Notes under the pieces: generated by a model
The model's database searches: none
Told to the model about the DNA's origin: nothing
Seen by the model: only the letters and a program-made list of their open reading frames with translations
Translations under genes and position numbers: made by a program
Shown: piece by piece, positions 7,282 to 57,980 of the stretch
Layout: the number at the start of each line of letters is the position of its first letter
Position numbering within the stretch: the stretch's first letter is position 1
Assembly (NCBI GenBank): GCA_963924565.1
Contig: OZ004615.1
Location: 15,748,001-15,812,000 of the forward strand
Origin: Ascidiella aspersa
Taxonomy: Eukaryota
Direction of reading: 5' to 3'
DNA length: 64,000 nt

Positions 7282-7694
7282 TAATATGCGAGTTGTGTTG
7301 AAGAACTTCAGCATGATTGTCGAGATTTCTGGCCAGACGTCTCACGTAGCAATAAATGCGAATGTAAGAACTTTTGCCATTATTATGTGTTCCTTTCTTT
7401 CTGCAAATGCTCGAGTTATGTGTAATAAGTGGTCTGTAAGATTACAAGCACGACACATATTCATATTTGAAAAATAATGATTCTTTAGTAAAAGGGCTAA
7501 AAATGCGAATTAAGATGGACCCTCAAAAACTTTTCGTTAATGAAAGATTCTACCACAATTGCATTGCAATACCATGAAGCATACATGGGTAAAACGAAAA
7601 AGTGTAATGCAGTCTCCCAAGTTTCGTTTAAGAATAATTTAATCCCAAAATTAAAAAAAACTTACCGACCAAATCAAATGTTTTGCAATATTTT

Positions 7695-12794: not shown

Positions 12795-13563
12795 ATGTCG
12801 ACCTGTTGTACCTCTGGTGTGGCACAGTATTACGTTTTAACAGCTGGCCTTCTTCTCAACACTTCAGCGTATGTTGGTAAGTAGTAACTAGGTTACACAT
12901 ATTTGCCAATGATAATAATTTTGCAATGTTTTTTTAGGAATTCTAGTTCTGCAAAGCAGCATCAACATTGTTGGAAATATTGGAACAACATGTGCCAGTA
13001 TTTTGTACTTGTGTGCTATATTTCTCTTGTTGACTGCAACTCCGGTTATGCTGCTCAGGATTGGGCCAAAGTGGTGCCTTATTGTAGGAGAAATTGGGTT
13101 CCTTTTCTATACTCTTGGAAATTTCTTTTCAAGTAAGCTGAACATGCCAAATGCAGACATGCCAACATACTTAGGCTACTACTCACATAGTATTATGTCA
13201 GCCTGTTCTACCATTGTGCGTTTCATATTTGGCACAGAAAATAACATTTCTTCACAGGTTACTACAGTATGATACCAGGCGCAGTGATTGGCTCTCTGGG
13301 CGAAGCTTTCGTGTGGTCTTCTGCCCCCCTTATTGTCACGCACTTAGTAAAAGAAACTTGGGAAAAAAGAGATAAAGACGACCAAACCTCGCAAAGCATT
13401 GATCACCTGAGGAATAAATGGTTCGGACACTTTTACGCCATACTAAAAGCCAGTCAGGTAGGCCGTAATATAATGCATTTACTATTCATACACATTAAGT
13501 TAAGGTTGTGGTCGTAAACGAGAATACTTCTACGTCTAACAAATCATCGTTATAATAGTATAA

Positions 13564-13596
<33 letters not shown>

Positions 13597-21674: not shown

Positions 21675-22517
21675 CTAACCCAAAAGAGGAACATCGTCGG
21701 AACCGTCAACATGAAGGGATGAAGAATTCGACTGTTCTTCGGGCGGCGTTTCGATTAAATGTTTTGCTTGCCCGGCAAGTTTGTACAGACGATCCAACAG
21801 TTCTCTGTCGTTCATAGAAAGACAAACCTTACAAAGGAGCAGCGTTCGCGTCGCGCATAAAACTAACACGAACCCCATGGTAATGTTAATGTAGCTGATA
21901 ATTCCGAGTCGCTCGCTATTTTGCAAAACGCAGTCGAAAGTAACATCTTTGAATGCTGTACAAGTGAACACTCCTTCCGTTTCTTCTTCCTTGTGGTTAT
22001 TGACAAACGTTATCATCGTAGCACAGTAAGAAATGCTCGCTATTAAACAGATAATGCTCCTGATGCGATAGGTTCTAACAAATACATGCGATTTTTCCAT
22101 TTCGCCCAGAATCCCTTGCTTCTTTCTTTTGTTCGTGTTATTCGAATCCTTTACCCACTTGTAACTGCGCGCGGCGTTGACCACATGCGGAAAGAACTCC
22201 AAATAGCAGTTGTAAAGGTACATCAGTACGGCATATACCACATTAAGCCACCAAAAGTTTCGAAAATAGTTGAGAGACGGTTGCATGAAACAAACTTGGT
22301 TTACGTACTCCAAGTGGTAGTCCTTGAAACGGGAAATTGTTGAGTTTTCAAATTCTGACTCCACACAAACAAACGAGTCGTCGTCCGAGTGGGTAAAGAA
22401 GTACAGAGATGTGGCGATCAAAATCAGATTGCACGAAAACGAAACTTTTTCCCACCATGGCTTCAAATCGTTCTCTTTAAACAAATCCGATGAAGGCAGA
22501 ATGTGTTCCAAAGACAT
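21675..22517 (-). CDS. LRRC8/pannexin-like 4-TM large-pore channel domain protein lacking LRRs (intronless CDS, 280 aa)
   Basis: LKPWWE (cf. LRRC8 LKPWWD) before TM1. YVNQVCF...YFRNFWWLNVVYAVLMY...FFP matches LRRC8 YVDAVCY...FAKYFPYLVLLHTLIF...KFP. MEKSHVFVRTYRIRSII matches VEEGDIVYRLYMRQTII. Two Cys in each extracellular loop; four hydrophobic segments. Confidence 0.8.
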   Translation of the reverse strand: MSLEHILPSSDLFKENDLKPWWEKVSFSCNLILIATSLYFFTHSDDDSFVCVESEFENSTISRFKDYHLEYVNQVCFMQPSLNYFRNFWWLNVVYAVLMYLYNCYLEFFPHVVNAARSYKWVKDSNNTNKRKKQGILGEMEKSHVFVRTYRIRSIICLIASISYCATMITFVNNHKEEETEGVFTCTAFKDVTFDCVLQNSERLGIISYINITMGFVLVLCATRTLLLCKVCLSMNDRELLDRLYKLAGQAKHLIETPPEEQSNSSSLHVDGSDDVPLLG

Positions 22518-25500
22518 GTTAACAGTAATGCTTAAGATTTCACCCAGAAAAAACCTTTGTTCTACAAAAACACAACCTTTAGATTTGTTAATCTATCTTT
22601 GTGTGGCAAGAGTTGAAGTTGCGTTTAACATCCAAGCCTTTGGTCAAGGGTACAGCTGGTTTACTTATCTGTCAAACATCATGGAAAAAAGCACTGTAAT
22701 CCTAATTCCTCTAAATCTGAGTGGTGACGTCTTTTGCCTGGAAATGGATTATTTATGTAAATGACACTAAATTAAATCAAAATTTAGGAAACATACACTT
22801 CGAATCGAAAGTGTGTGGAATTAGATATATTTTTTTATAATTCCGTTTTGACCAACAAACAAAATGTTACTTAAAATAATTTTCTCAGCTCAAAAATCAT
22901 TGTTCATTTATTAACAATACCTTTAAAAATTGCAAACAATTTTAATAATTCTTTATAAAAGTTTTATTTTAGGAAAATTTTCATTTTGCAAATCAATTAA
23001 TCAATAAAAAAATATGCGTAATTCAGTATAAACTAATTAGTTTCATACGTATAAAACTATACTAAAAGACCTCGTCTACGTGTATATTCCAAAAAAACAT
23101 GATTAACAAGTTATTTTTGCGAGACTTAGCCACCACTTGTACAAATTTAGTTGTGAAGAAATTTGTACACTTTTATGAAGATATTTAGAGCAAATATAGA
23201 ACGAACATTAAAGTTATAGCAACGTCAATAAGGGTGTATGCCAGAATATAGACGGACGGTCTTCGCAGAAATACTCTCCGCTAAGTTTGGTGCAGTAACT
23301 TGTTATGTTTTGTCAAATAGATTAAAATCAACCAAGGTAAATGTGTCGCGGCTTCTACGCTAACTTTAACTGTACACATACCTTATTACACGTTTGCGTT
23401 AGGTTAACATTGTTTACTGACAAACATAGGGTTCTCGTCTCCGGACCACCTGACTACCGGCTGTGTTGGAACCAATTAAAAAAAAAGTAATTTAAATTCG
23501 CACCTATATATTCGTTTTTCAGCCCAAATATCGTTTATTGAAGCATAACGTCCATTTAAAGGCTACTTCATATTATACCGCTACCGATACTTTTCACAAC
23601 TTACTCTAACTTGTTTTTATGGTCTCATACACATACCAAGGTAAAATTTGTTACTAAAACGCCTTCAGGCAATTGAGAAAAAACAACGATGTGCGACAAA
23701 GGCGTCATACCAAACTTTACAGATTATATTGGTTCAATATATAGATCTTGTATAAACCTTTTCGTGAGTCGACATTGGCTTCGCTTGTCTATAGAGAAAA
23801 AACGATTACTGATGAGTAAACAACAAGACGTCACTTTCGCGTGATACTATTTCAGCCGTCACGAGGCTATGCGATGTAATTTGTCAATAACACGTTGGTA
23901 TTCGTTAAACGCTAGATAAATCTTATTCATGAAGTTTAACCAACTTTTATTTCTCGTACGCTTTTTTTGTAATATATGCATTGTGTTGGATTATAACGTG
24001 GTCAGCTGGTTATGTTTTGTCATCTCACAAGCTTACCTTAACCAAACTTCTGAAGCTACCCTTAACCAAACTTTCTGACTATTTATGCCGACGCATATAA
24101 TTATAAACGTTCACTTTGTTTCAGGAAACATTTGCAGTTCCAACTATCACGTTGAGGGTTTCAACGGTCATATTTCCGTAGTCTCTGTTTTCTGCTGTGT
24201 GGGGTATCTGTTATCTCGAATATATTGTATAATCAATAATTCTTAACTGTAGCAGGCACTTCTGATAAACTCAGCTGTATATCAAACTAGATCTGTACGC
24301 TTAGTTGCCTGTAGCGTTTGTATTTAAACTTACTTATAGAAGAACGCGTTAGTTAGTACGATTAAGACTTTGATGAATGGTTGCTTGATTGGAAATGCTT
24401 ATCTCAAGTTACAAAACTCTCGTAGGCAGAGCAGAGCTACTACGACTGTTGACTGGTCACCGTACCGCGACGCGTGCAGTCGACTGTAACGTTCTCCTTT
24501 TTTCACTTTATTTTATAGGCGCGGAAATAGAAACCTAGAAACCTGATTAATTTATTGCCCTAAGTAAACAAACAAACATTTTAGGTGTTCTGCAACGACT
24601 CCAGCCATAAGACCTAGATCAGAACAACATCAACGTCGGAATAAAACACAGTTCGGTATTAGACCAAAATAGGACTATTAATATCTAAAGGTCGTAGGAC
24701 TGTCTAAATCGCAATAAGTCCTAAATCCGTCGGAATAAGACCTAAATGGTCAGAATCAGGCCTAAGCGATACTTTCTACCCAAAACTCTACCCCTAAAGA
24801 CATCACTAACTCCCCTAAAAATTTTAACACTAACCCATTTTCTAACCCAAACCTTACCCACTAATAACCACAACTAGGGCCAAAAATGAGCTATATATCA
24901 ACATGGCAAATAGAAGCTGCACAAGATGTTAATAACTTCCTTTTAGATAATATTAGGTGCTGGTATTAACACCTGTCCTAGTCATTCAGATTTTACACCC
25001 AAAATAAAAATAAGAGTTGAAAGCTTTTCGAATTGCTAAGCATTAGCTTATAAACTTGCAAAAGCAAGGTCCGAAACATTGGGAAAAATACAGGAAGGTC
25101 TTAAAAAATCCTTATACAATAGGTCTGTTATTAATTTCATGTTTACAAGTGATGGTAAACTAGATTATGTTTACCCAAATGTTAATTCTCAACTATTTCT
25201 TCCCAGTTTGGGCGTAAAGTTACTATATATATGAGTGTGAATGTATGGGTTCGCTTTTTCTTTTTACCTTTTTCTACAGAGAAACCCTCAAAAAGCCAAA
25301 TAGGCATTTATAGGTCTGAGAACAATAGGCCTATATAGGTCTGAGAAGGAAATAGCATACCTCAATTCAGGGATTCTCCAGCATTTTTAAGCTGCGCACA
25401 GTTTCAAATTAACTGCATGTATGGAGTACCGGTATCCCTTGAAAACAATTAAAGTTTTAGGCTGATTAGAGCCTGTGTGCCGACTGTTCCTAAATAATCC

Positions 25501-34200: not shown

Positions 34201-36872
34201 ATAGTACAACAAGAAACAAAAAACGAAATAAGAGGCAAAACCCATAGACTCTTTTATAACAGTTTCATTACATCCAGTATACACTTTTTTGTTGGAAGTC
34301 TGAATAATTGTTAAAAACACACAAAAAAAAACGTTCTTTCAACACTAATTGTGTACGTGTGATCAATTTAAATTATAGACGTGACCAATGCGACAAACGG
34401 ACTATAACAAAATGTAAACTTCCCCAACTGGTTTGTAACAACCTTTCTACGAACAAATTGCCCACATCCGCAAGTTAATTTCTCTAGGCCACTGCTGAGT
34501 CACATGTAAAGGTGACTCAAAGCTAGGTATGTGACAGCAGGAAGTGGAACAGTGTGAAAACGTTCGCAGTTCGTGACAACGTTATAATTGGTGCCTGTCA
34601 ACGCACTGCCAGTACAAAAGAACCAAGAAAATGACTTGACACCCGTACGCTTAGGTTACATATAGGCGAATAAAAACATCCCTACATATTTTTTAGGTTT
34701 TTTGTTTTATGTCTAGTATAACATTAACTTATCCCTTTGAAAAAGTTAAAAATTATATACAGCTTCAATGAAAAACGTCTGCTATGGGTTTTAAGATATA
34801 GTTAAATATGCCAAAAAGAACTAAAATGTATGGGTGAACATTTTGTTCGTAAATACTAAAAAACAGGCCGGCCGGCGGCCAGTAACACTGCAAACAATAT
34901 TTTTGTCAAGATTTACATTTGTCTCGTTTCTGCTTTATGATCTACGCGCGATAAAGTCGATGTTGGGCTTAAGTTTGCCATCAAAGCGCCTTCAGCTCAA
35001 TCAAATTGACGCACCCTAGTATGACAGCAACAAGCAAGGCTGCTAAGCTGGTTAAAATGCCCCGAGTCCGACACCGAGTCTCTAGTCCGACTCCAATTCT
35101 TCAGCCTGTATTTCACCCATTTACTTAAATAAAATAAATTGAAAAATCAGCAACCCACTCATATGGGTGTCATAGAATTCATCCACCCACTTTACATGAT
35201 TAAAAAAGATTCTATATATACTATTCCACCTTTACAATTTACTGTTGGCGGCCATATCAGATTCAAAATTTGCTACTGCACATGCGCACGTCGGATTCTG
35301 CACTCAGAGAGTTTTACGTGGTCTTCTTACCCGAGTCCCGATTAATTAACCAACTCTGCGGAGTCCGGATTCCGACTTCGGCTCCACAGCCCTGATGAAC
35401 ATAACCTGTGATTACTTGCGCACGAATTGTGGCTTCGTTATACATTTGGCACAATTTATTTGCCATTGTAGTTGTAAAGTTTTAAAAACATTTGCGTCGC
35501 GCAGTTACGAGCCAACAATCGAGGAGATCCACAAGAAGACGGTGTCGGTTGACGGGGAGCAGTTTCTGCTTGAGCTGGTCGACACCGCCGGCATGGACCA
35601 GTTCACGCAAATGCGTGAGATGTACATCCGCAACGGCGACGGATTCATTCTGGTCTACTCCATCCTGGACCCGACCACCTTCGAGGACGTCAAGTCGATC
35701 CGCGAGCAAATCGTCAGGAGCAAATACACGTGAGACAAACAGGGCTGCGCGTTGTGTCTGACTCCCGATGACAGGCGTGTAAGGCCACTATAAGGCCTGC
35801 TAGCACGCCGGCAATTGTGGGACACTGATACCGAGTGACAATGCAAAACGTTTAGCATTCCATATATTATATATAGATATATATACTTGGGCACACTATA
35901 CACGGATCTGTAATGTAGCTTGATAATAAATTGCAAAGCCAAAAAGGTCAAGTAGATCGACATCATCTTGATTATGTTGTCTTGTCATCATCTTTGATTA
36001 TGAACACATTAACTGAAGATGATATAAGCTCGTATTGATATTGATCTACTCGACCTTTTTGGCTTTGCAATTTATTATTAACCTATATATATATAAATTT
36101 GCTAATTAAATAGTCAGTTTGATATTCGACATGCACAAGCTGTTCTGTGTCACCCTGAACGGCGTCTATTAAACCAAATCGCTAAAAGAGCTTCGGCTAT
36201 TGGTAACATCTATTTTAATACTGTATTGTATTGCCTGTGTAAAATCGCGCTAAGTTCAACTTTTTTACTTGAATTCTTGTTTATAAACAACAAAAAAGTT
36301 ATATCATTACTGTACTTTTTTTGCGTCGATGGAAAAAATGTGAGATAGTTTTCTTTTAAGCATTCTGTCGAACTTACTCAGGGCAATAAAAAATATTTTG
36401 TTGGTGTAAAAAACATTTCCAGCCTTAGTTGGTTGACTTTGCCTTAGGACAATACCTCTTGCATCTGAGGTGGCCTATGCATGTTACACTTGAGTGTGTA
36501 AAATTGTTAAACCTTGAAATAATATTAAAATACCTAATCAATAATCAATTAAATTGTACGACGAAAAGGTAAAGCGTGTAAGTGTGTAATTGCAGCGAAC
36601 AAGTTCCAATCGTTCTTGTGGGAAACAAGCGAGATCTCGCCGAAGCGGAACGACAAGTAGACGAAGACCTGGCATCACAGTGCGCCGCCAAGTGGCCACA
36701 TTGTCGCTTTATAGAAACATCTGCCCGGGACCATTGTGAAGTCGAGGACGTTTTTCTCCACGTTTTAAAGGAGATAAGAAGCTTCGAAAACACTCGGAAA
36801 AATAGGGTGACTGCCCTCCACAAAGAGGCCTCCACGAGGCGAAAATCGAATGGAAGATGTAGCGTCATGTAA
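31215..36872 (+). CDS. Ras-family small GTPase, Rap-like (3 coding exons)
   Basis: Exons 31215-31306, 35505-35729, 36596-36872 with phase-2 introns. [17 protein letters not shown] (G1), YEPTIEE (G2), DTAG (G3), NKRD (G4), ETSAR (G5), CAAX CSVM. MR.YK start and [16 protein letters not shown] are Rap-like. Confidence 0.9.
31386..31719. mobile_element. hAT MITE (CAGGGGTTCTTAAAC family), degraded
   Basis: Termini caggggttcttaaac...gtttaagaaccctg; similar along its length to 32871-33184. Confidence 0.75.
32871..33184. mobile_element. hAT MITE (CAGGGGTTCTTAAAC family)
   Basis: Perfect 16-bp TIRs CAGGGGTTCTTAAACT/AGTTTAAGAACCCCTG; TSD ttctagta/ttctatta. Confidence 0.9.
35060..35393. mobile_element. 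hAT MITE, GAGTCC-rich family (partial)
   Basis: Similar to 16041-16421 and 45607-45988; right end ...ctccacagccctg. Confidence 0.75.
35886..36078. repeat. Second copy of the hammerhead-family fold-back repeat (ribozyme core broken)
   Basis: 35886-35972 is the reverse complement of ~15055-15139. 36005-36078 is a forward copy with CTGAAGATGAT but no GAAA. Confidence 0.75.
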
Positions 36873-41997: not shown

Positions 41998-44900
41998 ATG
42001 AGTGGCAAGATGCTTCATTCACAAAGTTGCCTGGTTTTTGCCCTGATGCTGTCATCTCTTGCTGGATGTACTTTTTGTGAGTAAAACGATTAAACTTTGA
42101 AGCACAATAACATTGTCTACTAAGTGAAAAAAAATTAGAGATAACAATGTAAATAACCATCTTTAAAGATGAAACTAAATCTTTCTGTAGAGTATAAATT
42201 GGTATACAAAATATATATTTTTGCAGTAGCTTCAGCTGAGCACCTTAGAAAGAGCAAAAGTCTGTCATGGAGCAAGTGGACGCGCTGTAGTGTGACATGC
42301 GGCGAGGGTAAGCAGTCACGTGTTAGAATGACGTCACCAAGAGTGGAAACAAGACCTTGTTACAAGAAGTTTTGTCCAAGTAATTATATTTTTAATTTTT
42401 CAACTTACGTAAATGCTCAAGGTAAAATTGTTTGTTATTATTTACAGTTCACTTACAGGATAACGGGGCCTTAATAAGAAAATAATTTAAAATTTAGGAG
42501 CAGAGTTGTAAGACTTACGACAAATATTTTTCTGTAAGTACCCTGCCAAGGTACTCCCGGTGTAATATTATGAGGGTGCCATTATCGCTGGTCAGTAAAA
42601 ATCACAAAATATAACCATTTGTACAATCAAGTGATTCTTAAGATTGCGGCGCCCTAAAAATATCATGGCACAATTTCTACCACTATATGCCAATTTGAGC
42701 CCAACATAAGTGAACAATCGTACTTATAGTTCTATTATACTCTGCAAAGAATGTGTAAATAACATAATAATATCAGTTATGTAATCGATAGGCGTATTCA
42801 AATATGCCATGTATGTCGACTTGGATATTTGTAATACTTAAAGGATATTTTACTAACTTAAAAATGCGCGGCAAAAAGCTATCGTGAGTAACTTGGTGTG
42901 CCGCAACATACAATTTCCGAACCACTGTTATGCACAAAGGTTGAACCAAAACGTACACTGATTTATTTATCTGTGTGTTTTTACCTGTCATCATGTGTGT
43001 GTTTTTTTCTCGTGTTTTCTCGCGTCGTTAACAAACGCTGCCAACTATCCCAGGTTACCTTTCGTGGCCGCGACTCCACTTCAGTGGCAAGTTTGTGGCG
43101 GATGTAAGCACCCTGAACAACATAGCGTGCAACTACGACAACAGGCATTTTACCAGCACCGCAATATCACGTTACAACCAGCGGCAACTTTCAAAAGTTA
43201 GATTTTGATTTTAAACTAGTACTTTACGAACTTCACTATACTCACGTACCATTTATTGAGTTGTCATATCATCAGCGTTTCTAACATTTCAGAACCTGTT
43301 AATAAACATTAAAGGGAAAAACTGTTTAACGAATACAATTTAATGAGATTTAAATACAACTTTTATTAAGTTTTTTACTAAATAAATAAAAGACGTAAAA
43401 TGCATAAGGTTTCCTTTCTTCGACCAGTTGGTGGAAGTGAGAAATAACTTTTCTCACTGCACATCAAGGTGATATACATGAACATCATTACGGAAACCGA
43501 CTCTTACAATATAGAGAGTATATGAAACACATCATCGCACCTTCAAATGTGGAAAGAAAATTGCACAAAAACTCTAACATGTTGGAATTAGAAAAATGAA
43601 ACTTTCACAAGCTGCATAATTAAAACCAGAACCACGCGAATTTCACCTCTTACGAAAACCAGCAAGACAACTGGAATGCGATGGGCAGCGGTCACTTCTA
43701 CTTCGTTGGAACTCGCATCACTTCAATTTGCACAAGCCCCAACAGTTGCAGCACAAAGGCACCTATAACCAAAAGTGTTCTGCGAGGTAAAAACAACTTT
43801 TTGAAAATTGCGACTGAGTCGTGGGCTGCAAAAGCATTATGTAGTTGCGCTCTCATGTTAAGCCTGACGGAAACTATGTTACGCAATTAAGTAACCCTAA
43901 TCTTATTGGTCACATGTTATTGAACTTTGAATCGATTATGTATAAACTGCCATGATAAGTTTGAGAAGTGTCTTTACATGGTCTATGTTTTGTTGAAGGA
44001 TTATGAGATGGATTGATACATAGTCTACTATTTTTATTTCTTTGCTCATTGGAAAAGTTTACCGCTTTACGATCTTATTTTTGCAGAGGCTGAAAGGGCC
44101 CAGATGGTTACCCCTCACCCATATGAGCAGATCGCTTGCGAGGTTTGGGGACTAACCATACAGATCCCGGGGGTGTTGGAAGGACGGTATAAACCGGCCT
44201 GCAATCAGGTGGAAGGAAGTAGGTGCAAGCGGGTGGTTGATAAATTCACCAAAGGATACTCGTTTTGCAACCTGGCGCGTTTTAAAAGGTAAGAATGATT
44301 ATTACATTAAGCATGCGTAGAGCATTACCCTAAACACCCTGGGCGGTATAAAGCGCGGTTTTTGATACTTTTATCTTGCGCTGCCCTTTTTATATATATT
44401 ATCTGTCAAATTATTAAAAAAATGTTGCGTGGACGGTTAAAACGTTCTTACAGACCCGCTGGGGTGCGCATAAACCACTTCTTAAGCAATGGAGTTACAC
44501 ACTAGCGTAACAGGTTGTTTCAGCAATAACAAGATCAAGTAAAATTCACAGTGTCATATGGTTCAAATAACATTTGAAAAAACAGTTAACAAACCTTTAA
44601 AAATAAAATGAAATTAGTAAACGCAATCACTAACACTATGATTAACAGAATCGTTACTATTGTTTTAAGTTCTCCAAAACATTTGTCTGCATGTTTATTT
44701 TTTTCATTTTTGTGTTGTTTTGGAACACATCCAGCCTAATAAAATTATTGTGTAGATTCACTTCCACCGTCAGTGCTACTAAATCAGTTGAAAAATTCCC
44801 TTTCAATGCTAGAATTTTTTTTTTAATATGGCTGTACGTAAATATAGAACTTATTCCAATAAACACATATGTTTAAGATGAATTTTTTGGCAACAATTGC

Positions 44901-47900
44901 GCAACATACTTTGTGTTTTTTTGCAATAATATTACGACATGCATTACTTTTTCCAGCGTTCTACGCAACATCACTTGGTACAGTGAATTTCACAAGCGGC
45001 TATTTCATAATGCCACGAGTCTTAGCATTACGATGGTGATCGACCATTTTAATCAGATAGCCCGCTCTGGCAATGTGTCAGGAACCATAGGTAAGAAAAA
45101 AAGATGAATGTTTGCCTTACACCTAAGACATATATATAACTATTTGAGTTTCTCGTGGAATAAGTAGAACTATTATAGATGCTAGGTAATCTCTAGTACT
45201 AAAATTTGTTGAATAATTTTTTGCTTCTATGGGATAGAGCAGTAAATCCCAAACTGCGTGCCGCGGCACAATAGTGTGCCTCGAGAGATTGTAAAGTGTG
45301 CCGCGAACCTTTTTTAAAATTGGAAAATGTAGTTTTTGTAGGCATACACGCAAGCATTTTTGACTTAAATACGCACTATTTATTACAAACTATTCATATT
45401 GAGACATTTACATGTAGTTTGTCGTGTGTTAAGAGCGGCTGAAAAGTTTCTATATTGTTTTTCTGTTAAAAGTGTGCCGCGAAATATTAAAGATTTTTTT
45501 CGTGTGAGGCGAGCCCAAAAAACGTGGAAACCACTGGGATAGAGGCTTAGCGTGCAATACATTAACACTATTATTTCAGAAGAAAAAAGTTACAGGTGTT
45601 TAACCCAGGGCTGCGGAGTCGGTTAAAAATAACTCGAGTCCGACTCCCGAGTCCGACTTCGGCCGAAAAAATAAACACGAGTCCCGAGTCCGACTCCGGT
45701 CAAATGTGCGATTTTGTCAAGTCCTGAGTCAGGCCCGGACTCAGGACAGTAACTAAAATAACATTGATTTTCAGCAATCCACCTATATAGGGGTGTCGTA
45801 TAATTTATTCACTCACAAAACATGGTTGGAAAATATTTCACCATTTGCTATAACACTTTTACAATTTCCATTTGACGGCCATATGAGTTTTAAAATTCGG
45901 TACTGCGCATGCGCATGTCGGACTCGGGACTCGGGTAGCTTTACAAGGTCTTACTCGATCGACTCCCGAGTCCGACTCTGACTCCGCAGAAAATGCTTTT
46001 GGCCCTCAATCTCAATACTCCTTACCGAATGTAGAACCAAGTATTATCTAATTTAAGAAGTAAATTGACAAGTCATGTATCGATCCATAAATGGGTTAAA
46101 CAACTTGAATGGAAATAAGTGCAGCGCGGGACTAGATTACATTTATTTAAAAAAAATGTTTTTTTGTACAGGTCTGACTTCTGGCGACGACTCACTTGAA
46201 GCGATGGCATCACGGCTTATGATGCCGTTTGGAGATGCTGTGCAGACACCGTTTTACCTTTACAAACATAAGAAAATTGTTTGCATTGACATGGGAGGGG
46301 CGTTGCTCGCGTACGACAATGGCAAACCTAAGTCGAAGGGGGTTTTTCTAGCTGTTAAGGTCCAATGCCGGTAAAGTTACTTCATAATAGTGTAATAGAA
46401 AGGCTTTTATATTTTATTTCAAATTATATTTTCTTATTTTATACTTACAAATATTTTCTTTTCAGTGGCGGTTATTCTAATGTTTCTCTAGTTCTACTTT
46501 TATAAATCTTAGATTTTGATAAAATGAGTTGTCCAATAAATATATTTTCTTATTAAGATAACGACCAACCCAAATTTGGACTGATACACTTTCATATTCT
46601 TTACCGCTGAAATATGAAAGGCGTACGAAACCATCAGATCTTTGTTGATCAAAATATACGTTTGCTAGATTTCCATATTTATACGCCACCTATGTGTGCT
46701 ACAACTCAGTGGTGTCTGCAGCTGGAGATACCTACTACATTCTACAAAAGCTCACTACGAGTTACCTGGACGCCAAGGGAGACTGGTACTGGCTAAAAGG
46801 CGGAATTCTGGACGTTAGCCTTTCGCATTTGCCTTCCAGCGTTTTTCGCTTGCTTGAAAATCACAGGCTGACGATATTGCAAAAAGCTAAGCGTCGCAGT
46901 CACAGGTGAAATACGCAATCGATAGCAAAACATCTAGAGATATGTAAAAACTTATAAATTATAGTCATACAACCAATGCAAGGTTTTACACTAAGGGTGG
47001 TCAGTCAATCCAAGACCTTTTCCAAAAAAAACACATATCTTTGCTTAGCTAGATCTATTGTAAATGTTACACATCAACAACAATGTATATATCTAGGAAT
47101 TATGAACGTGTTTTTTCTTTAAAAATCGATGCATTTACGTTGGTAAAGCTTCTGGCATCTAATGAAATAATTGACCAGAAACACTTTTGAGTCAGAATCG
47201 GCATAGCATAAATAAAAATGCAAAATACTCTGTATCAATGATCAATCAAAATGGGTTACATATGGTCGATATATCGGTACATCGTCGGGCATCCTTAACA
47301 AGAATCGCTACCAGAGTAACGTTTTATTTTAGTTTCTTCAGGATACTTGTCGAAGAACCGAAGTATGGCATGAACGTTGGCGTCTTCAGTTCGGTTATTC
47401 AACGATTAAACGTCAATCAAAGCGTCGTATACAAAACATTCGCTTCAAAGTACGGCAAACCATTAAAAAATGTCCATCTTTCCATGGGATTACTACCGGG
47501 AAAAGAAATTTGTGATTGTGGATTCGAAGGTTGCACGTAGTAAGTTAAGGTTTTTCGTCGAACTTACAAACAAGCTAGATATTATAGGAGTGATAGCACG
47601 ACAACAATGGACAAGTAAGCACGTTTTGCAATCCTGCCTATCTGTATTTATTTATTTATCGTGTACCAACCGAACACCATTGAGGGTTTTACCAAAATGT
47701 CACAAACTAGAACCCCAAAATAATACTTCTTTTAACAAAAAATATGTACTATTTTATATTGTGTTTTGAGACATCAGTAATGGTACAGTGCGCAAAGTCG
47801 AAAAAGGGCCGAAAAACACAACGTTAGGAATTAATTCTGTGCATGTGGGAAAATGCCATTTAGTGACTATTAGGCAGTAACTTAAAGCACAACAATGAAA

Positions 47901-50900
47901 TAATTTGATAAACTTTCTGCAAATCAGCAAGGTTTTGTGTATTGGTATTGTTAAAGCTATGTCTGCCTATTAACTTGGCGTTGCTAAACATACGGTAAGA
48001 AGCAAATTATTTTAAACCGTGACCGTTTAAAAGTAAAAAAAAGATTACTTTTAAGAGTATTACTCCACCTTTCTCTCAGAAATAGAGCCATTTTTTTCTT
48101 TCACGGAGAAAATAAATTATCCCGACGCCTTTCGCTTGAGATAAGGAGCGCCTTTTTACACTGCTCAAATTGTTGTAGACATACCGACTGACCAACAAAT
48201 ATCGACAAATCTAGATATTAGGATTTTTGTCATGAGATATTTTAAAACTGTTTCGACATTTTGATAAAACCAACCAACAAAAAACAGTGTATTATTTTTG
48301 GTTTGTTATAATAATTGTTGTAGTTTTCTCCCTAATTATTTTTATTGCAAAATATTGTTTGTTTAGTTAGGCTGCTTAATTACGGCGAACTCTACACAGT
48401 AAAAAAACACATCCCTTCAGAATTAACCTTGTGTCAATTATTCATTCAGTCGGACAGCAGTGCCCGCGGAATCAATTCGCATCAGTAGTGATAATTCGTG
48501 GACCGGAGCATCTGGCATAAACTCCCACACGGTGTCTCTCGTGAGCGATCCTGGCAGTAACGGTTGCGGCATCGACGGTCAGGTCTACTCGTTGTACACC
48601 AAACTGAAGTGAGAGCGATTTTATCTAGTATTGAAAGGTGTAGTGATGACGCGCAAGATAGTGCGGCATAATTATACTCGTGATTTCGCATATCTTGGAT
48701 TTCGTTAAAAAATGTAAAAGTTAGACAACAATAAATTGGATTTTACAATTTGTTACTATAATTTCAAGTTTATAAATGCTCTATCACAGTAAAACGATTT
48801 TATGTTCTGCTCCCGATTCACCTGTACTGTCCTATAATAATTTACTACTCATCAAAAAACAAAAGTAATAAAAATATGGTGTTTGATAGGTGGTCTACAG
48901 CTAAAAAGATTTTTTTTAAAGTTTGCCAAAATGATTACTTGAACTTCAAAAATTTGCTATGGAAACTTTTTAACAACATAGTTTTGCGTCCTATCGGGGG
49001 GCGTCATGACCTGTTGTTGTTCTATGTGTGGGTGTTGTATTATTCGTGCACTCAATTTTGCGTCGGTGTTACCAATATTAATTTCGAATTAATATAGTTA
49101 TGGTGATACCCAGTATAAAGCGACTCGCCAAGTTATTTTTCTATATTTGTTATAAGATCCACCTTTTAATTGGGGGTATTTTTGCAGGTATGATATATTA
49201 GGCGAAACCGTGAACTTTTGCAATCCCGATGGTGCCACCGATTGCAAAATCGGTCTGGATAATCAATTGACGCAGGTTCGAGCATTTAGCGAAGTCGAGG
49301 TGCCAGATTGCCCGGGATGGCTTGACATATCAGGTGAAGTTAATAGTTTTCGTTAGCTTAACTGTTATTGATCCAAAGAAATATATTATTATCCTCAAAA
49401 AGAATATCCTGTAGCTATTGGCTTCATTTTACATTAAGGCAATTTAAAGAGTGAGGTTAATCCAATCAACAACGATAAGTGTTTTATTGCCTATTCATAA
49501 AAATCTAATAATTCTTCCTAAAAAAATTGCAAATATATACCGTTAACATAAATAAACAACGTTTTTACAATTATGTTTTTAATATATGTTGTTGCATGTT
49601 TGTGAAATGAATTGAATAAATAATGTTTTATTTTTTATTTTAAATCCCTATAATGGCTTTAGGTATATTTGAGCAATACTACAACCTGTATCCTGTAATG
49701 TGGCGAAACGGAATTATTGACTTACATGCGTACGGGGAGGTAAAACAGAAAGCGCGACTCATAAAGACTGCCATGTTTGATCTAGATTTTTCTCATCCAC
49801 GGTAAGCGATTACTTGCTATAAAACAGTGGTTCTTAACCTTGGGTAAATTACCCACATGTGGGTAATTTCAGGATAGCAGGTGGGTAATCAGCTCAACCA
49901 GAATATTTAGAATTATGGTTGTAACAAACAATGTCACAGCTGTAAGTGCCTAAAGGCCCGTTTACACTACAGCTGCACTGAGCGGAGCTGAGCTGCACTG
50001 GGCGTGGAATTGTTTTCACTACAGCTGCAGTGAGCTGCGCTGGGCGTAAAAATCGCGACAAAACGTAATGTTTTTCTATAGCTGCACTGGGCTTGAGTTT
50101 AGCAAAGCGTGGAAATCGCTCCAAATCGTATTTTTTTTTTCAGCTGCACAGGGCTTGAGTTTAGCAAAGCGTGAAACGCTTTAGCAAAGCGTGAAACGCT
50201 TGCCACAATAGAATTTAAATGCAAATTACGCCCAGCGCAGCTCAGTGCAGCTGTAGTGTAAACGGGCCTTAAGTGGTAAGTTGCTTTATTACTTGCACTT
50301 TTTTTTGATGTTTTGAGTCCTTTTGAAACAAGCACAAGGATATTTTATCATTTTTACAATTGTTTTGTCATAGTGATAATTAATTTTTGGGGCCGGTTTA
50401 CGTAGTTTATATTTATGTGACGTAATAGTAAGATTTTCTTGTATCGCTAAGCAGGCTAGCCTAGTTATTTTTTCATTATCAGTTTTCTGTTAGTGTTTAT
50501 TTTTGAAGGTATTCTTAGTAGTTATTTGGAGTAGTTCACAGTGGCTATAAGTGTGCATTTAGAGCTAGTGTTGAGATGAGCGAGCTATAATTTGTTAAAT
50601 AACACTGTTTTATATTTTTAGTATGGTAAAATAGCAAAATGAATAAAATTACATTTTGGGTAATGGGACCTTGATCTGGACCAAAATGGGTAATAAGGGA
50701 AAAATGGTTAAGAACCCCTGCTACAAAATAAACGCATGATTTTTATTAATCCAAAAACAGTTCCTATGGTAATTATTTTTTCTCGAAGTTGTTCGCGTTT
50801 TTCTTTCTTTTTCCTTTGTAATTTGCCAGATATTGTATTACTAGCGTTCGACGTCATTCACAATGAAAAAGGCGATTTGAATATGTGGCTGAAACGTAAA

Positions 50901-53900
50901 GAAATATAATTACCAAGGGAGCTGTTTTTGAACAATATAAAGTCTGGTAGCAACAGTATTATTTCAAACTCCAATCGATAGAAATTGTGTATAATGTATA
51001 GTAATTCAACTTTTGGTAGTTATTCTAAAGTATTTGTGAAACGAAATTCTGACAGCCATGTGAACAAATACTGTGGTGAAGTCGCAAATGTATTTATTTT
51101 TTTATTTCTTACAACGACTACTGTCCTGTTAGATACATGCCAGCCACGAGGGACTTGTCCCTTAGTAAGCAGAAGCTCATTTGGAATTGGATGCAATGCG
51201 GAATGCAGTTTGACACACGAAATAAAACACGCGGTTTGTACATCAAAAATAGTTCTAGCAACATAAATATACCTAATGATATTTAATTCCACGTTCGAAG
51301 TTTAAATTTATAGTTCATTTTAATACCAATACTTATTAATTATCCTAATATCCTATACAATTTTCTGCCTAAATAAAGTGGGTTTAAATCAAAACAAAAA
51401 ATTTAGTACTGGTTTAATTTTAGTGTTTATATGATATGACAGTGTTTCCCAAGTTATGAGTCTCTGCTTATTCTTTTGGTTCTCTTGTCAAAATACAAAA
51501 AAAACCTTAAAGTTTATTATAGACAAAGTTAAAAACAAATGATGAATATTAAGAAAGTGGTGAACGTCACGCTTGACATAGAGTTGTTACCTTATATTTG
51601 CAATTTGTCAACAAACATATTCCAATAAGTTGGATTCAACACGTGTAAGTTGCGGGGTGATTTTATATACACAATACACCAACAAAGACTGTAGGTGGTA
51701 CGACTCGTACCCTACAAAAATGCTTTGTTTTAAGTTTTTCAAACAGAAATAACCTATTTTATAGGATATTAACCTATTCTTCCTATAAACAGAATATTAG
51801 TTTACCCAGTTGTTATACATATAGTTAAAATTACCGAACTGAATGTGACTTGGTTACCTACTTTACACAACGTATATCAGTTTACCACATATAAGGTATT
51901 TTACGTCTAATAAACTGAAGTCACTTTTTCCCGCTTTAGCTTTTCGTAAAGCCTAGGACTAGAACTATCTGGAGTCTCGTAAATAATGAGTATCATCTTT
52001 GTATCAGCGTGAAAAATGATGTGGACAGGTTGTGTGCAGTAATATTTTCTTTTGTAGTATATGTTTTTCGTTTTGTATTTCGTCTATAATAGTGATTCGT
52101 CTGCAGCTCAGTTTTACCGCTTTTTTATTAAATATCTTGCTACATAACCCTTTCTCAATTAACACCTCTTAAACTACCAAGTTTAACAGGATAAATGCAT
52201 AATATGACTTTTGAGCTTGGCGAAAAATTATACGTTTTATTTGTAAAAGCATGCAGCTTTGGGAGCTAGCAGCTAGTTTGCTAAAACACCTCGATGTTTT
52301 GACGTAGGCCACGTCTCCTTTAATTAAAAAGTTTGCCAAGTTAAACTACGTTAATTTCGGACGTCATCTTGAAACAACTTTAAATCCCAAAAAACAAATT
52401 CCTGAATTTCCTCTTTATTAGATGAGGCCTGGGTTGCCAGATTTGCATTGTTTGAAACTTTCGAAATTTTTCGGAACAAAGAAAAATATTGGCAACCACT
52501 GGGGGAGTGGTATTTTACTCAACCCAACCTTTACCCTGCTAAAGTGCTTTCATAGATGCATAGCATTCTCATAACCGAATATAATGCAAACATGTGATTC
52601 AGAAATAGTATAACACATAACAGATTGCTCCAAATTTTGCTTCATTAAATTTTGTTTAAAATGTCGAAATCGGATTGAAAGCCATATTTAAAAAAATTGA
52701 TATAAACTGTAATAGTATTTCGTAAGCAGTAAAACGACCATTAATCGTTTTGTTTCAAACCCGTCAGGAGAATGCAGCACCGATACCGTCAAGGAAGGCA
52801 TAGTTGAATTGAAGGCCCTTATCCAAAAAATCGTCATGCTTGAACTTGCAACCATCCCCCCTTACTTCACGGCGTGGCTGAGTCTCAAGACGGAAGCCGC
52901 AAGAAACTATGAAATTGCGCGACGACTCAAGTCAATCTTTAGTGAAGAAATGCTACATATGTCCCTGGCGGCCAATATGCTGAATGCGGTGTGCATACGG
53001 GCTTAAAGTTATACATTTTTTCGTACCTATAACATTCCAATTTTGGAATGCATTCACAAGAGTTTTACTTTAAACGTTTATCATTTCGGATGACGTTTCT
53101 AATTTAATTTAAAATCATATAAAGATCGAGGCTCAAAACAGATACTTTTAAAAAAGGTTTATCCACAATCCGATGATATTTGGAGCTAACCATAAAAACA
53201 TTCAAGCTAACAACTAAATGTAATTTACATAATTTAGTTCTATGGTACTTCTCAAAATAATAAAACTAATGCCCAATATGATTTATTGAAAACACACATT
53301 GCGTTTTACAATACGTCAGCACTTTGTAGTATTGCTTTTAGGTTCGTAAGCGTAATTTGATTGCATTTAACTCGAACCTTTACCAAAGTGACAGCCGAAA
53401 TTAAATCCGGTTGTAACGTTCGTATAGATTGGAGGAACCGTAAACCTTACAAACATCAACGAACTGCCTTCCTATCCAACTCCGATTGGAAGTGGTTCTT
53501 TTTACGACATTTCAGCCAACATTCTACTTCCGTTGGAGCGCTTCTCCATTCCACTTGTCCGGGATGTATTTTCGAACGTCGAGATGCCAGCGTCAAAGGA
53601 AGATAGAAAGGTTTGGAGTAATTACATAATTATTTGTAGGGATTAGGCAATCATTGGTTGTGAAGAGTTGTACAGATGTTAGCTGCATTTCGTTGCCATT
53701 CTACAGAGTATCGGGTCGTAATGTTTTAAACCTCCCTAAGCAATAATGCTGTAATGGTCTGTCAATGCGTTTAAAGTTAAAGGTTTATTTATTGACTCAG
53801 ACCGATCAGGCTTATTTTCCAATGCAGGAACTGCTGCGAGCAGCGCAACTCTGGAAGATTCTCTTTCAGTTTACGGACGAGAAACCTACGAATAAAATGG

Positions 53901-54832
53901 CCCTGCTCTTGGAGGAACTTGCCGAAAGTGATGAAATAGACGAAGACCCGCTTCAACTAGAAGCAAAACCCTATGATTCGTTGGAAGAACTCGAAACAAG
54001 GAGCTGGTTGGCGATATACGAATACGCAAGAAAGCGATTGGATGCGCATAGAAGCTCGTTGGCCGGCACTATCGGGGGCTTGTATGGCAAATTGTTGATG
54101 CATATCATACTACTTGAATCTTGTGCAAAGCTGTACGGTTTCGACGACGGAAGGTCGAATACCAACACTATCTTCGTCGGCAACTTCTCCAAACAACTGA
54201 ATATAACCTCTTGGTACGACCCTTCCCAGAAATTCGCCCTGAACGAAACCATTGCATCGATGCAGGTATCGGATTGCAGTATGTGTGATAATTGTATTAT
54301 GTCGTCAAAAGCAAATTGCATACGCTTGTTTAAAATGAAGTTTTGCCTCACTGAAATAATTTGTCAACCCAGCTGGTCACTGTTAGTTGGCATTTAATAG
54401 CGCCTAAATTTAGATTAACAGCAAAGTAAAGGAAACATTATAATTAGATGGTACTCCACAACACCAGTATTATAGTAAATGATCAAACTGCCATGACTGT
54501 CAAATCTGTTGTAGACTGTTTTATCATTTAAACGGTGCTAATTTGAACCATACCTCGCATAGAAGTTTGTTCTATAAAATTATAAGTAATATTACAATCG
54601 ACAAAATAGACTCATATCCTACTCCATCATCCTTCGTCATTCGTTATATGCTACTTTTTCAAGGAACAAATGAGACAGGAAGAGCTTGAGATAACACAAT
54701 CGCAATCCAGTTTCGTGATCAAGAATCCTATTCCTCCAGCTTACTCGAAAGATTCCAACCTGTCGATGCCCTTGTTCCCGATCTTCGATTTACGTACGGC
54801 AATTCAAGCGGTCGTTGAAATTGTCTATCAAG
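41998..54832 (+). CDS. Secreted TSP1 + VioB/RebD/StaD-like (ferritin-like C-domain) fusion protein; at least 17 exons, >1008 aa, 3' incomplete
   Basis: Exons 41998-42076, 42227-42379, 43054-43196, 43663-43786, 44087-44288, 44957-45090, 46172-46370, 46669-46905, 47342-47539, 48450-48608, 49188-49333, 49663-49801, 51133-51233, 52768-52988, 53428-53610, 53828-54265, 54664-54832. All GT-AG, phases compatible, 3025 nt with no stop. Motifs in order: signal peptide; WSKWTRCSVTCGEG; SYLSWPRLHFSGKFVADVSTLNN; WNAMGSGHF; EVWGL; SGTIG; DPG...IDGQVY; QYYNLYPVM; YMPATRDLS; LELATIPPY; EEMLHMSLAANMLNAIGG; TIGGLY; AVVEIVYQG. Confidence 0.88.
42227..42379 (+). other. Thrombospondin type-1 repeat exon (phase 1-1)
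   Basis: WSKWTRCSVTCGEGKQSRVR...ETRPCYKKFCP: WxxW, CSVTCG and RxR motifs; a 4-Cys short variant. Confidence 0.9.
45607..45988. mobile_element. hAT MITE, GAGTCC-rich family
   Basis: CAGGGCTGCGGAGTCGG...CTGACTCCGCAG; collinear with 16041-16421. Confidence 0.85.
49825..50720. mobile_element. hAT MITE carrying a nested Harbinger MITE
   Basis: TIRs CAGTGGTTCTTAACC/GGTTAAGAACCCCTG; TSD ctataaaa/ctacaaaa. Confidence 0.85.
49954..50269. mobile_element. PIF/Harbinger-type MITE
   Basis: Long perfect TIRs AGGCCCGTTTACACTACAGCTGCACTGAGC; 3-bp TAA TSD on both sides. Confidence 0.88.
52768..54832 (+). other. Ferritin-like (PF12902/VioB C-terminal type) domain exons
   Basis: ELKALIQKIVMLELATIPPYFTAWLSL...EEMLHMSLAANMLNAIGG...PSYP...LERFSIPLVRDVFSNVEMP...TIGGLY...IFVG...LFPIFDLRTAIQAVVEIVYQG follows the family consensus as I recall it. 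Confidence 0.88.
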
Positions 54833-55151: not shown

Positions 55152-55351
55152 NNNNNNNNNNNNNNNNNNNNNNNNNNNNNNNNNNNNNNNNNNNNNNNNN
55201 NNNNNNNNNNNNNNNNNNNNNNNNNNNNNNNNNNNNNNNNNNNNNNNNNNNNNNNNNNNNNNNNNNNNNNNNNNNNNNNNNNNNNNNNNNNNNNNNNNNN
55301 NNNNNNNNNNNNNNNNNNNNNNNNNNNNNNNNNNNNNNNNNNNNNNNNNNN
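55152..55351. other. Assembly gap (200 N)
   Basis: Run of 200 N; the true size is unknown. Confidence 1.
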
Positions 55352-57980
55352 CATCTCCACAGGACTCAAAATTGCATTTCTACGCAAATGTGTAAAAATG
55401 CAAGTTCTACTGCCATCCAACCATAAAAAGGGTATGGACTTTGATCTACTTTTATTACAACAGTCGAGGCGCATTCATGAGCAAATTGTCAAGATCCCTA
55501 CTGCTCGCATAGACCAAAAGACGTGGCAATTACTGTCAAACGAAACTAAACATCAGCTTTTACAACATAAATGCCAAGTTCGCCACAAGCTTGACAACAA
55601 GTTCCGTTGGCTATGGGAAAAGCAAAGACGCCAAAGGAACCTTATTGGCGCTGCAGTCAATGGAAGAAAAAATCGAAACAGACGAAGCAGACAAAGGTAT
55701 CGTGCACGCAAAGCTGGAATTAAGGCGAGGGAAGAGAGACAAAATGCTAATATGATGATTATTAACAAATCAGGTCAAATGCTTGATATTAACGCTAAAT
55801 TATTGTTAGCAAAAGGGTTAAACTTTGCACCCACTCCGAACTGGAGTAATGCAATAAGGGACAAAGAATGGATTAACTTCCAATCGCACATTCGACGTAT
55901 TGAATGGGCCAACGTATTCAAAGATAAGGAAGATTCTACCAATATTTTTATACCACCTTACAAATTGAAAATTCCCAAGTTTTCCAGACCCCACAGAGAC
56001 CAATTAGATTTGGAAACAGTTATTTACGTGGAACTGGCTGAAGCTAAACTGCGAAACGTAGCTGCGACCGTGCGTAAAGAATACAAAGGCAGAAACAACC
56101 TATCCTTCCCCCTCCGAAATAGCCTAGAGTACCTCAAGCGCCTTACCTCCAGTCGGACGCTAGCATTCTGTCGGGCTGACAAAGATGGCAAAACCATTGT
56201 GGTTGACTATGAAGATTATAACTTCATTGTGGAAAATGCACTTCATGATTTCCAAAGTTTAAACCTCAACCAAAGAACTTTTCAAGCCAGATGTACAGCG
56301 CTACGAAAGACGTGCGAAGATGCAGTGAAGATGTTGCATGCACAAGACGCCATTTCGGACGATCTACTTCTCTGTTCCGTTGGGGTTAAAATCACCTTTT
56401 CTTCAGCTTCAGAACGTGGTGACGAAGCATGGAGATAATTTTTACCAGCAGAAAGATGGTATAGTTACAGGCGATAACCACTCAGTATCGCTGGCTAACA
56501 TTACAATGCATTATATAATAAAACCATGGATTGAAACCTTAAAGGAAGCACAAGTCTTTAAAAGATTCATCGATGACATTGTCTGGATTGTTGCAGGCGG
56601 AGCAGCAAACAGACACATTCAAACATCTTTGGAAAAGGCACTTGCAGCACATGGACTCCGTCTCCTATTTCGTTCCTTCTGTACAACCGACGTACGTGGA
56701 CAGGTCGACTTTCTTGACGTACTCCATGTCCCATGTGCAGAATCACCCTTCGGCTTCAAACTAAAGGATTTCAAAAAAGAAACTGCAAAACATCGGCAGT
56801 TCTTACACGGAACTTCCCACCACCCCATTTCCGTTTTTAAATCAATCATAACTGGAGAGGCGACACGCCTTAGACGACTAAACGAGATGGAGGAAGACTA
56901 CTCACTGAGCCTTCAAAATCTCGGCAAGAAATGTCTGCGGTCGCAGTTTCCTCCAAGGATGGTTAAACTCACGTTAAAAACTGCAGCACAGTTTGAAGCT
57001 AAAGTGCGCCAAAGGCAGACAAAGAAAAACAGAAAGGACCTTGTAGTTTGGCCCACAGCCTTTCCAAAGCTGCTTAAAACTACCTTAGACGAAAGAAGGC
57101 TGCAGCCACAAGCGATGCTTGTCTACAAAAGACCTCCGACACTTGGAAGCGTACTTACCAACTACCGCGCAATTAGTCAACCGGCAAGTACCATCCCTTC
57201 CACTGGAAAGTCAATCCCGTGCGGCCACTGCTGTTTATGCGGTCATTATAAACAGGCAGAGAGCATGGTCTCGAAGGTTTTCACAGTTCCCACGCGCAAT
57301 GGGAACATAGCACTGAAACAAGCACTTTGCTGCACCGACCACAGTATTTACATGGCGTCCTGTCGGCAATGTGGCGAACGATACGTCGGGCAAACAAAAA
57401 ATTCATTTGCAACAAGGTGGAGAGGCCATAGAGCAGTATGGAAAACTTTCAAGTACAAAGAAAATAACGACAAAGCAGCACTTCTGCGCCACTATGCTGA
57501 CAAACACATGTCCATGCTGAGGCAGAGTGTTTCAGCATAACATTTTTAGAAAAACCACCTTTTAATAAGTTGGACATATGTGAAGCAAAGTGGCTAAAGG
57601 TAGTCAACGCAACCATTAACATCCAAAAAATGGTTCTACCGCGAATAAGATAAACCGCTATCTTATCGCTACCCATTCGAGCCGCATTTTACCGTCTAGC
57701 ATCTCGCACTGCTCATATGTATTTTTCCCCCCTTCCTCTACTTATTTGTGTCGCCTACTCATTTATCCCAGTCGTGTTGCCTGCGAGGCTGTAGTGCTTT
57801 TCATTGCGTTTTTAGTCTATTATAATGTTTTAATATTTTATTGTTTCTTTTATTGGTTTGTTGATGGCTGCGCTCTGATTTTATTTATTTGTACTCTTAC
57901 AGGAACTGATGATGCCACTTTGGCGAAATATATTTTCCTTTAAACAAAACGTCTGATCCTGTTTTTACTCATGTTTTTAA
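55352..57980 (+). mobile_element. Penelope-like retroelement (RT + GIY-YIG endonuclease), internally deleted and frameshifted, with 3' pLTR
   Basis: Frame open from the gap (FLRKCVKMQVLLP), LAKGLNFAPTP, RADKDGKTIVVD; then FYQQKDGIVTGDNHSVSLANI, KRFIDDI, DFLDV, SHHP...KSIITGEATRLRR, CGHCCLC, SIYMASCRQCGERYVGQT (GIY-YIG). Frame breaks near 56390 and 57530; final stop at 57653. The 3' boundary is approximate. Confidence 0.92.
57901..57939 (+). ncRNA. Minimal type I hammerhead ribozyme in the Penelope pLTR
   Basis: AGGAA-CTGATGA-t-GCCA(ctt)TGGC-GAAA-tata-TT-TTCCT: stem I AGGAA/TTCCT, stem II GCCA/TGGC, palindromic ATATAT stem III, AUU cleavage triplet. Confidence 0.85.

Follow-up and report, generated by a model that had tools for sequence, protein, structure and literature searches.

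Does the tunicate Ascidiella aspersa carry a VioB-like enzyme that has been remodelled for the secretory pathway? This question is raised by a stretch of 64,000 nucleotides of its genome (assembly GCA_963924565.1, contig OZ004615.1, positions 15,748,001 to 15,812,000 of the forward strand; hereafter the window), in which an earlier note had taken the N-X-S/T sequons and the cysteines (Cys) of a VioB-like protein as signs of a disulfide-bonded extracellular or granule glycoprotein. Using six-frame translation and splice-site reading, we rebuilt the gene on the forward strand at 42010-54832, with 17 exons, GT-AG introns throughout and 1024 codons free of stops. Exons 2-17 were recovered in order by tblastn with the Ciona and Styela homologues. 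The span given earlier (43054-54832) corresponds to exons 3-17, and an exon resembling a signal peptide and a TSP1 exon lie upstream of it. The encoded protein consists of a predicted signal peptide, a single TSP1 repeat and a core related to VioB, in which there are 11 sequons and 20 Cys. Our answer to the question is therefore a divided one: the secretory route and the probable disulfides were borne out, whereas the sequon count, the choice of VioB as reference and a remodelling specific to this protein were not. The suggested roles in cross-linking, pigment or defence, and the tethering through TSP1, stay conjectural.

The evidence for secretion starts at exon 1 (42010-42076; all gene features are on the + strand), which encodes a predicted signal peptide with Met, a short polar start, a hydrophobic core and small residues, in the same layout as in the homologues. 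The hydropathy of this segment is 3.07, which serves as a proxy for a cleavable signal peptide. Across the family, a hydrophobic N-terminus was scored as a hydropathy window of at least 2.0, which is a proxy and not a SignalP prediction, and it was present in 28 of the 31 named animal homologues versus one of the 49 bacterial ones. No later segment of transmembrane strength was found in any of 21 sequences, where all 19-residue windows after residue 45 had a hydropathy of at most 1.57. Because the full-length homologues have neither a transmembrane nor a glycosylphosphatidylinositol-like tail, the protein in all probability enters the endoplasmic reticulum (ER) and is secreted in soluble form. 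Thus, the secretory route stands, largely on evidence other than the sequons. It should be noted that one annotated isoform of Styela is without the N-terminal 187 residues.

Exon 2 (42227-42379) encodes the TSP1 repeat, which passes Pfam PF00090 (32 bits; cut-off 21.6). We tested it for the WxxW, CSxTC and RxR motifs, and it reads WxxW/WxxC and CSVTC; it holds four of the usual six Cys, the middle pair being lost. A TSP1 with WxxW and CxxS/TC motifs was present in all 12 tunicate sequences, and these motifs are sites of C-mannosylation and O-fucosylation in the ER. In addition, the coral members have the N-terminal hydrophobic segment and no TSP1, and two amphioxus members carry added Kazal or LDLa modules. 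Predicted secretion is common to the sponge, cnidarian, brachiopod, hemichordate and amphioxus members, so a remodelling of this particular protein is not supported, and the TSP1 is the tunicate addition.

The core contains 20 Cys in about 950 residues (2.1%), and the Cys motifs quoted in the earlier note are all present (positions 155/161, 212/220, 488/490/495, 561/569, 591, 667 and 681). Twelve of the 20 occupy alignment columns that are conserved in at least 11 of the 12 tunicate sequences, which argues against chance. Eleven of these 12 were found in at most three of 49 bacterial sequences; the exception is C161, where 37 of the 49 also have a Cys. Six further invariant Cys fall in the tail missing from our gene model, which gives 18 in the full-length homologues. 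The remaining eight core Cys are private or nearly private to the gene, including both of CNQVEGSRC and both of CNPDGATDC. Furthermore, Cys were lost in pairs, C351/C362 in paralogue P0008 and C495/C536 in P0016, each as a single event. The median Cys content of the matched core was 1.91% in tunicates (n = 12), 1.74% in amphioxus (n = 4) and 1.28% in corals (n = 10), versus 0.66% in bacteria (n = 49) and 0.82% in VioB/StaD-like proteins (n = 6). Most of the conserved Cys very probably form disulfides, as had been suspected, and it is their conservation and paired loss that point this way.

Meanwhile, all ten quoted sequons were found (NIT245, NAT259, NVS280, NQS456, NKT675, NLT758, NFS941, NIT947, NET961 and NLS1000), together with an eleventh, NFT125. 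Sequon density in the matched core was 0.94 per 100 residues in tunicates, 0.39 in bacteria and 0.12 in VioB/StaD-like proteins, so neither Cys nor sequons are equally frequent in the bacterial homologues. The corals had 106 sequons versus 62.3 expected (ratio 1.70), and the observed/expected ratio was 0.72 in bacteria. Alignment with the bacterial homologues, which had been proposed as a way to find animal-specific sites, gave a mixed result. N259-A-T (45009-45017) is such a site (12 of 12 tunicate versus 0 of 44 bacterial sequences), and the 11 Cys come close to being so; N758 is kept in 8 of 12 tunicates and N947 in 5 of 12. On the other hand, six of the 11 sequon sites are unique to the gene, like the eight private or near-private Cys, and N280 replaces an otherwise near-invariant Arg. 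The pattern of sequons and Cys is an ordinary consequence of secretion and is unsurprising in itself.

Which family does the core belong to? In our homologue search, 4308 representatives passed E 0.001; the top 150 were listed, and names were looked up for 20. Homologues were found in Styela, Ciona, Clavelina, amphioxus, corals, a jellyfish, Lingula, two hemichordates and the sponge Corticium. The homologues that could be named included none from a vertebrate, an arthropod or a nematode, which does not show absence from these groups. The closest homologue was Ciona LOC100181841 (40.6% identity over 1038 columns), and the Styela homologue was 37% identical to the gene product. Among bacteria, the nearest proteins are uncharacterised; they are about 900 residues long and encoded by one fused gene or by split genes for about 630 and 350 residues. 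Against the best eight of this bacterial family the gene product scored 160-176 bits (27% identity over 766 columns), versus at most 10 bits against seven VioB/StaD-like proteins. For the latter set, VioB was fetched beside vioA- and vioC-like open reading frames and the StaD-like proteins from relatives of a Streptomyces genome; 7 of the 12 loci gave usable proteins and five were dropped.

The profile searches gave a similar picture. For TIGR04492 (cut-off 1250 bits), the two closest full-length homologues scored 22.8 (Styela) and 15.1 bits, and overall the scores were 15-33 bits in the 5 of 10 proteins that had any match. PF12902 was passed by exon 14 alone (53 bits versus 22.3), exons 14-15 match it, and the Styela homologue reached 140 bits over profile positions 1-220. 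In addition, the family profile reaches VioB (E 5e-30) over the N-terminal, middle and ferritin regions, and the ESM Atlas returned mainly bacterial PF12902 clusters. Because the scores lie far below the TIGR04492 cut-off, and because the 900-residue family is matched at 160-176 bits and the VioB/StaD-like proteins at 10 or fewer, the gene product is, by sequence comparison, a member of a VioB-related superfamily and not a VioB. VioB is thus not supported as the reference point, and the gene belongs to a remote sister family.

The result of phylogenetic analysis showed that the VioB/StaD-like proteins formed a separate and very long branch in both trees (1.7-2.6 substitutions per site). The tunicates formed one clade, and the cnidarians were sister to the bilaterians, with support of 86 and 98 (Shimodaira-Hasegawa-like approximate likelihood ratio test) in the quick tree and 97 and 98 in the FastTree analysis. 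The gene's own branch was longer (0.74). The sponge sequences branch from an unresolved base. This topology fits an old vertical inheritance in animals, and a deeper bacterial origin of the animal family is possible, given that base and no identified non-animal eukaryotes. A tunicate-specific gene transfer was considered and rejected, for the cnidarian and bilaterian members form one branch (FastTree 97) and sponge members exist. We also observed, with good support, a clade outside the cnidarian-bilaterian branch that unites 11 homologues, richer in Cys and about 1050 residues long (P0158, P0160, P0168, P0169, P0175, P0178, P0184, P0203, P0210, P0212 and P0220), which might be sponges, although this is a guess.

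The structural analysis used predicted models of homologues, and the Styela core stands in for the gene product. The Styela core model (1170 residues, 65 sequences) had a predicted local distance difference test score (pLDDT) of 81.4 and a predicted template modelling score of 0.66. Its C-terminal half matched the ferritin-like structure 3HL1 with Z 24.6 and a root-mean-square deviation of 2.8 over 258 aligned residues. Residues 373-533 matched immunoglobulin (Ig)-like sandwiches (Z about 9), and the model of the bacterial N-terminal part (390 residues, pLDDT 90.1) begins with a beta-barrel. Foldseek gave nothing informative beyond 3HL1 for either model, and a sequence search of the PDB returned TSP1 relatives and, at E 0.3, 3HL1. 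On the gene, exons 3-8 (43054-46905) encode the N-terminal beta-barrel and beta-sandwich region with the conserved C99, C155, C161, C351 and C362, as placed by exon-wise tblastn and the homologue models; their bounds are 43054-43196, 43630-43786, 44087-44288, 44957-45090, 46172-46370 and 46669-46905. Exons 9-13 (47342-51233; 47342-47539, 48450-48608, 49188-49333, 49663-49801 and 51133-51233) encode the Ig-like domain and a small helical domain bearing YMPxTRDLS, with the conserved C490, C495, C536, C591 and C667. Exons 14-17 (52768-54832; 52768-52988, 53428-53610, 53801-54265 and 54664-54832) encode the first two thirds of the PF12902 ferritin-like domain, with the conserved C681 and C921 and the sequons N758 and N947.

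The predicted metal ligands E704 (helix 1) and E738-E739-x-x-H742 (helix 2) lie at 52842-52958, and in ferritin-like bundles positions of this type act as metal ligands. E704, E739, H742 and E804 were invariant in all 63 sequences (12 tunicate, 7 other animal and 44 bacterial). Ten of 11 full-length tunicate homologues retain the Glu of the GEG motif, and RNA reads show it for the gene itself. The His of the last ExxH is present in 11 of 11 of these homologues, and in the gene it falls in an unassembled exon. Thus, of the E...ExxH...E...ExxH four-helix pattern, the fold and the first three elements are kept, as judged from the homologue model, the alignment and the GEG Glu in the RNA reads. 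H143, conserved in the VioB/StaD-like proteins, is shared by the gene and 9 of 12 tunicate rows, and the ferritin His pair is also shared. Meanwhile, the YMPxTRDLS motif is kept across all groups. A second functional site in the N-terminal half is suggested, because this half of 600 residues has residues that are invariant from bacteria to animals.

What might such a protein do? We surveyed 80 bacterial loci, of which 24 have the N-terminal half, and 13 of these adjoin genes resembling EboB, EboC or EboE (L019, L021-L026, L032, L035, L040, L041, L049 and L055). Of 56 loci with stand-alone PF12902 genes, 45 lie beside a GMC oxidoreductase. No VioA match was found in the 80 bacterial loci within flanks of up to 6 kb; no amino-acid oxidase was sought in the animal genome, and the order of genes carries little meaning in animals.

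Previous studies provide the chemical background. The ebo cluster of Nostoc serves to export the scytonemin monomer, an indole-phenol, for oxidative dimerisation (PMC6282210). VioB dimerises indole-pyruvate imine, binds haem b and has catalase activity (PMC9705886). In fungi, PF12902 genes adjoin lodA/lodB oxidase genes (PMC4417212), and in the tunicate protein Tuphoxin a TSP1 is joined to a secreted tyrosinase, a phenol oxidase proposed to harden the tunic (PMC9395347). Because the ebo neighbours, the VioB dimerisation, the lodA/lodB neighbours and the TSP1 fusion of Tuphoxin, taken together, favour an oxidase that couples aromatics, our preferred explanation is a di-iron oxidase, secreted and disulfide-bonded with light glycosylation, which would couple small aromatics in the tunic or in some other extracellular matrix. 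As a whole chain, we put this tentatively at a little under an even chance. The signal peptide would direct the protein into the ER and on to secretion in soluble form. Within the four-helix bundle, a two-metal carboxylate site would then likely activate O2 or H2O2. The last step is the more doubtful one: the N-terminal beta-barrel may hold an aromatic (an indole, a phenol or a tunichrome-type catechol) for oxidative coupling while the TSP1 retains the enzyme in the matrix. A bolder version, which we regard as unlikely, would have secreted di-iron coupling enzymes, sister to VioB/StaD, building extracellular dimeric aromatic alkaloids, pigments or cross-links in marine invertebrates from sponges to tunicates, with TSP1 anchoring the tunicate enzyme in the tunic.

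Several observations weigh against this explanation. The barrel bears a weak likeness to Diels-Alderase, dirigent and avidin barrels (VIA-align, Z at best 5.9), which is a lead only. Only 6 of 11 tunicate sequences retain the Glu of the last ExxH; the gene has substitutions at positions where all 44 bacterial sequences agree (both Asp of the DLD motif at 182/184 and Arg at 280 and 534); and the His typical of VioB/StaD-like proteins (n = 6) are mostly not shared. Of the 13 ebo-linked loci, eight come from Undibacterium or a very similar genome. As for the Cys, bacterial homologues own five conserved Cys columns (23-45 of 49), one of them aligned with C161; animal proteins are generally Cys-richer than bacterial ones, so the percentage alone proves little; and the 12 tunicate sequences come from four species only and hence are not independent. 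Finally, the 11 sequons compare with 7.0 expected (p about 0.06, 300 shuffles of the same core), the 12 tunicate sequences have 104 sequons versus 93.1 expected (ratio 1.12), and the amphioxus members are sequon-poor (14 versus 20.5, ratio 0.68). With a count near chance and most sites idiosyncratic, the sequon count gives little evidence of secretion, contrary to the earlier note, and we also rejected it as proof of glycosylation.

Among the alternatives, a secreted protein that handles metal or removes peroxide (ferroxidase, Dps-like or Mn-catalase-like) in the tunic, blood plasma or mucus, acting on no organic substrate, survives best, although we still consider it rather unlikely. Beyond 3HL1, most of the next helical matches of the model were Dps, bacterioferritin and Mn catalase chains (Z 7.7-9.1), and the gene keeps the bundle ligands better than the N-terminal motifs; the catalase activity of VioB (PMC9705886) would also suit such a role. 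However, Z values of this size are the level of a common helical arrangement, the invariant residues of the N-terminal half suggest a second functional site, and the bacterial neighbours belong to small-molecule pathways.

Alternatively, the enzyme fold might serve as a scaffold in a secreted, non-catalytic matrix or adhesive protein. The gain of matrix-type modules by animal members (TSP1 in tunicates, Kazal and LDLa in amphioxus) would agree with this, as would the loss of several bacterial-invariant residues and the longer branch of the gene. Nevertheless, the retention of E704, E739, H742, E804 and YMPxTRDLS in all groups, and the GEG Glu seen in RNA reads, make this role improbable.

A further alternative is a cytosolic protein or a decaying allele, with incidental Cys and sequons. 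The model ends at EIVYQ, about 190 residues short of Ciona LOC100181841 (1015 of 1207), because a scaffold gap of 200 N (55152-55351, no strand) follows, which most likely covers the last exon or exons. Four RNA reads of run X7 continue from exon 17 into letters translating as GEGSSPC, the motif of the homologues, and the read sequence coding for it had no match in the genome assembly (G000) at one mismatch. When the C-terminal part of the Styela protein was searched against the genome, it matched only three paralogues on contig C3. Right after the gap, at 55352-57650 (+), we observed a Penelope-type retroelement with reverse transcriptase (PF00078) and GIY-YIG (PF01541) domains in two overlapping frames, apparently broken. 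That this element truncates the gene was considered and rejected in favour of an assembly gap, since reads splice onward, their sequence is absent from the assembly and the C-terminal matches are confined to the C3 paralogues.

The transcription data bear on the same alternative. About 6% of run X7 was read; we treated it as RNA, although no indexed run is recorded as RNA, and the type of run X3 is not on record. The 3' exons showed spliced transcription at a low level (depth 1-3), and the splice 52988 to 53428 was supported by one X3 contig and three X7 reads. Exons 1-12, exon 1 included, had no reads in the portion of X7 read. The sole exon 16-17 junction in a contig (X3) runs from 54265 to an acceptor at 54740 and shifts the frame, which counts against an intact enzyme and, with the unread exons 1-12, the adjacent Penelope-type element and the short Styela isoform, would favour a cytosolic or decaying product. 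However, the gene has 17 in-frame exons and no stop, spliced reads run into the next exon, and the signal peptide and TSP1 are the family layout. Because homology to Ciona spans the longer in-frame exon 17 (from 54655), the 54740 acceptor is probably an alternative, unproductive splice, itself unexplained. We consider a cytosolic or decaying product very improbable. The least probable alternative is a true VioB/StaD-type haem enzyme gained by tunicates from bacteria and making bis-indole pigments or defence alkaloids from indole-pyruvate imine: the profile match over three regions and the shared ferritin His pair speak for it, but the TIGR04492 and pairwise scores, the long VioB/StaD branch, the lack of vioA beside the 80 bacterial loci and an animal tree that broadly follows animal phylogeny speak against it.

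The three paralogues lie on G000:C3 at about 31.30-31.32 Mb (-), 31.62-31.64 Mb (+) and 32.91-32.93 Mb (-). They carry TSP1 and the C-terminal part and are members of the other tunicate subfamily (P0013/P0014 type). In copy B, one of the matched N-terminal segments contains a stop, which may be damage or the edge of an intron. In addition, the introns of the gene contain high-copy interspersed repeats at 45605-45960 and 49900-50700, with DNA read depth at least 100-fold above the flanks. Elsewhere in the window there are two tandem copies of a gene for an UNC-93-like membrane protein (about 3100-7300 and 12900-18000, +; weak PF05978 match, one exon) and a gene for a Rap-like small GTPase of the Ras family (35350-36869, +; PF00071). 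A single open frame of 305 codons at 21678-22592 (-), with several hydrophobic segments and Cys, has no Pfam match and presumably resembles a channel of the pannexin/LRRC8 type. The segment 61472-61885 (+), also without a Pfam match, is the first exon of a probable type II membrane protein, which we take to resemble carbohydrate sulfotransferases.

In the databases, the animal members are labelled 'uncharacterized', 'hypothetical' or, automatically, 'iminophenyl-pyruvate dimer synthase domain-containing'. A literature search, with supplements and subscription journals outside its scope, found no published study of the animal family, and proteomic or gene-transfer tables could list its genes under other gene ids. 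On the present evidence, this is an old, multi-copy, putatively secreted family of sponges, corals, a jellyfish, a brachiopod, hemichordates, amphioxus and tunicates, in which the predicted metal ligands are largely kept. If the members are extracellular oxidases, they are a testable candidate for tunic hardening and for host-made indole/phenol coupling in marine invertebrates. Furthermore, if they are coupling enzymes, they would provide a host-encoded pathway to compounds that are commonly attributed to symbionts.

The gene may be compared with four known systems. With VioB, StaD and RebD (TIGR04492) it shares full-length remote homology, a C-terminal PF12902 bundle with common Glu and His, and a similar size; it differs in adding a predicted signal peptide, TSP1, tunicate-specific Cys and introns, and its nearest bacterial kin are without a vioA-type partner. 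The bacterial 'ferritin-like' proteins of about 900 residues are its nearest non-animal kin and have the same invariant motifs; however, they have no signal peptide (48 of 49), about one third of the Cys, fewer sequons and no TSP1. Caulobacter CC_0557 (3HL1) shares the C-terminal fold (24% identity over the 258 residues aligned at Z 24.6), but it is a stand-alone domain of about 300 residues. Tuphoxin (PMC9395347) is alike in design, with a signal peptide, TSP1 and an oxidase domain, secretion into the tunic matrix, and a TSP1 fusion proposed as a tunicate innovation. Nevertheless, its domain is a copper tyrosinase unrelated to the ferritin-like core, and the likeness is one of analogy and not of homology.

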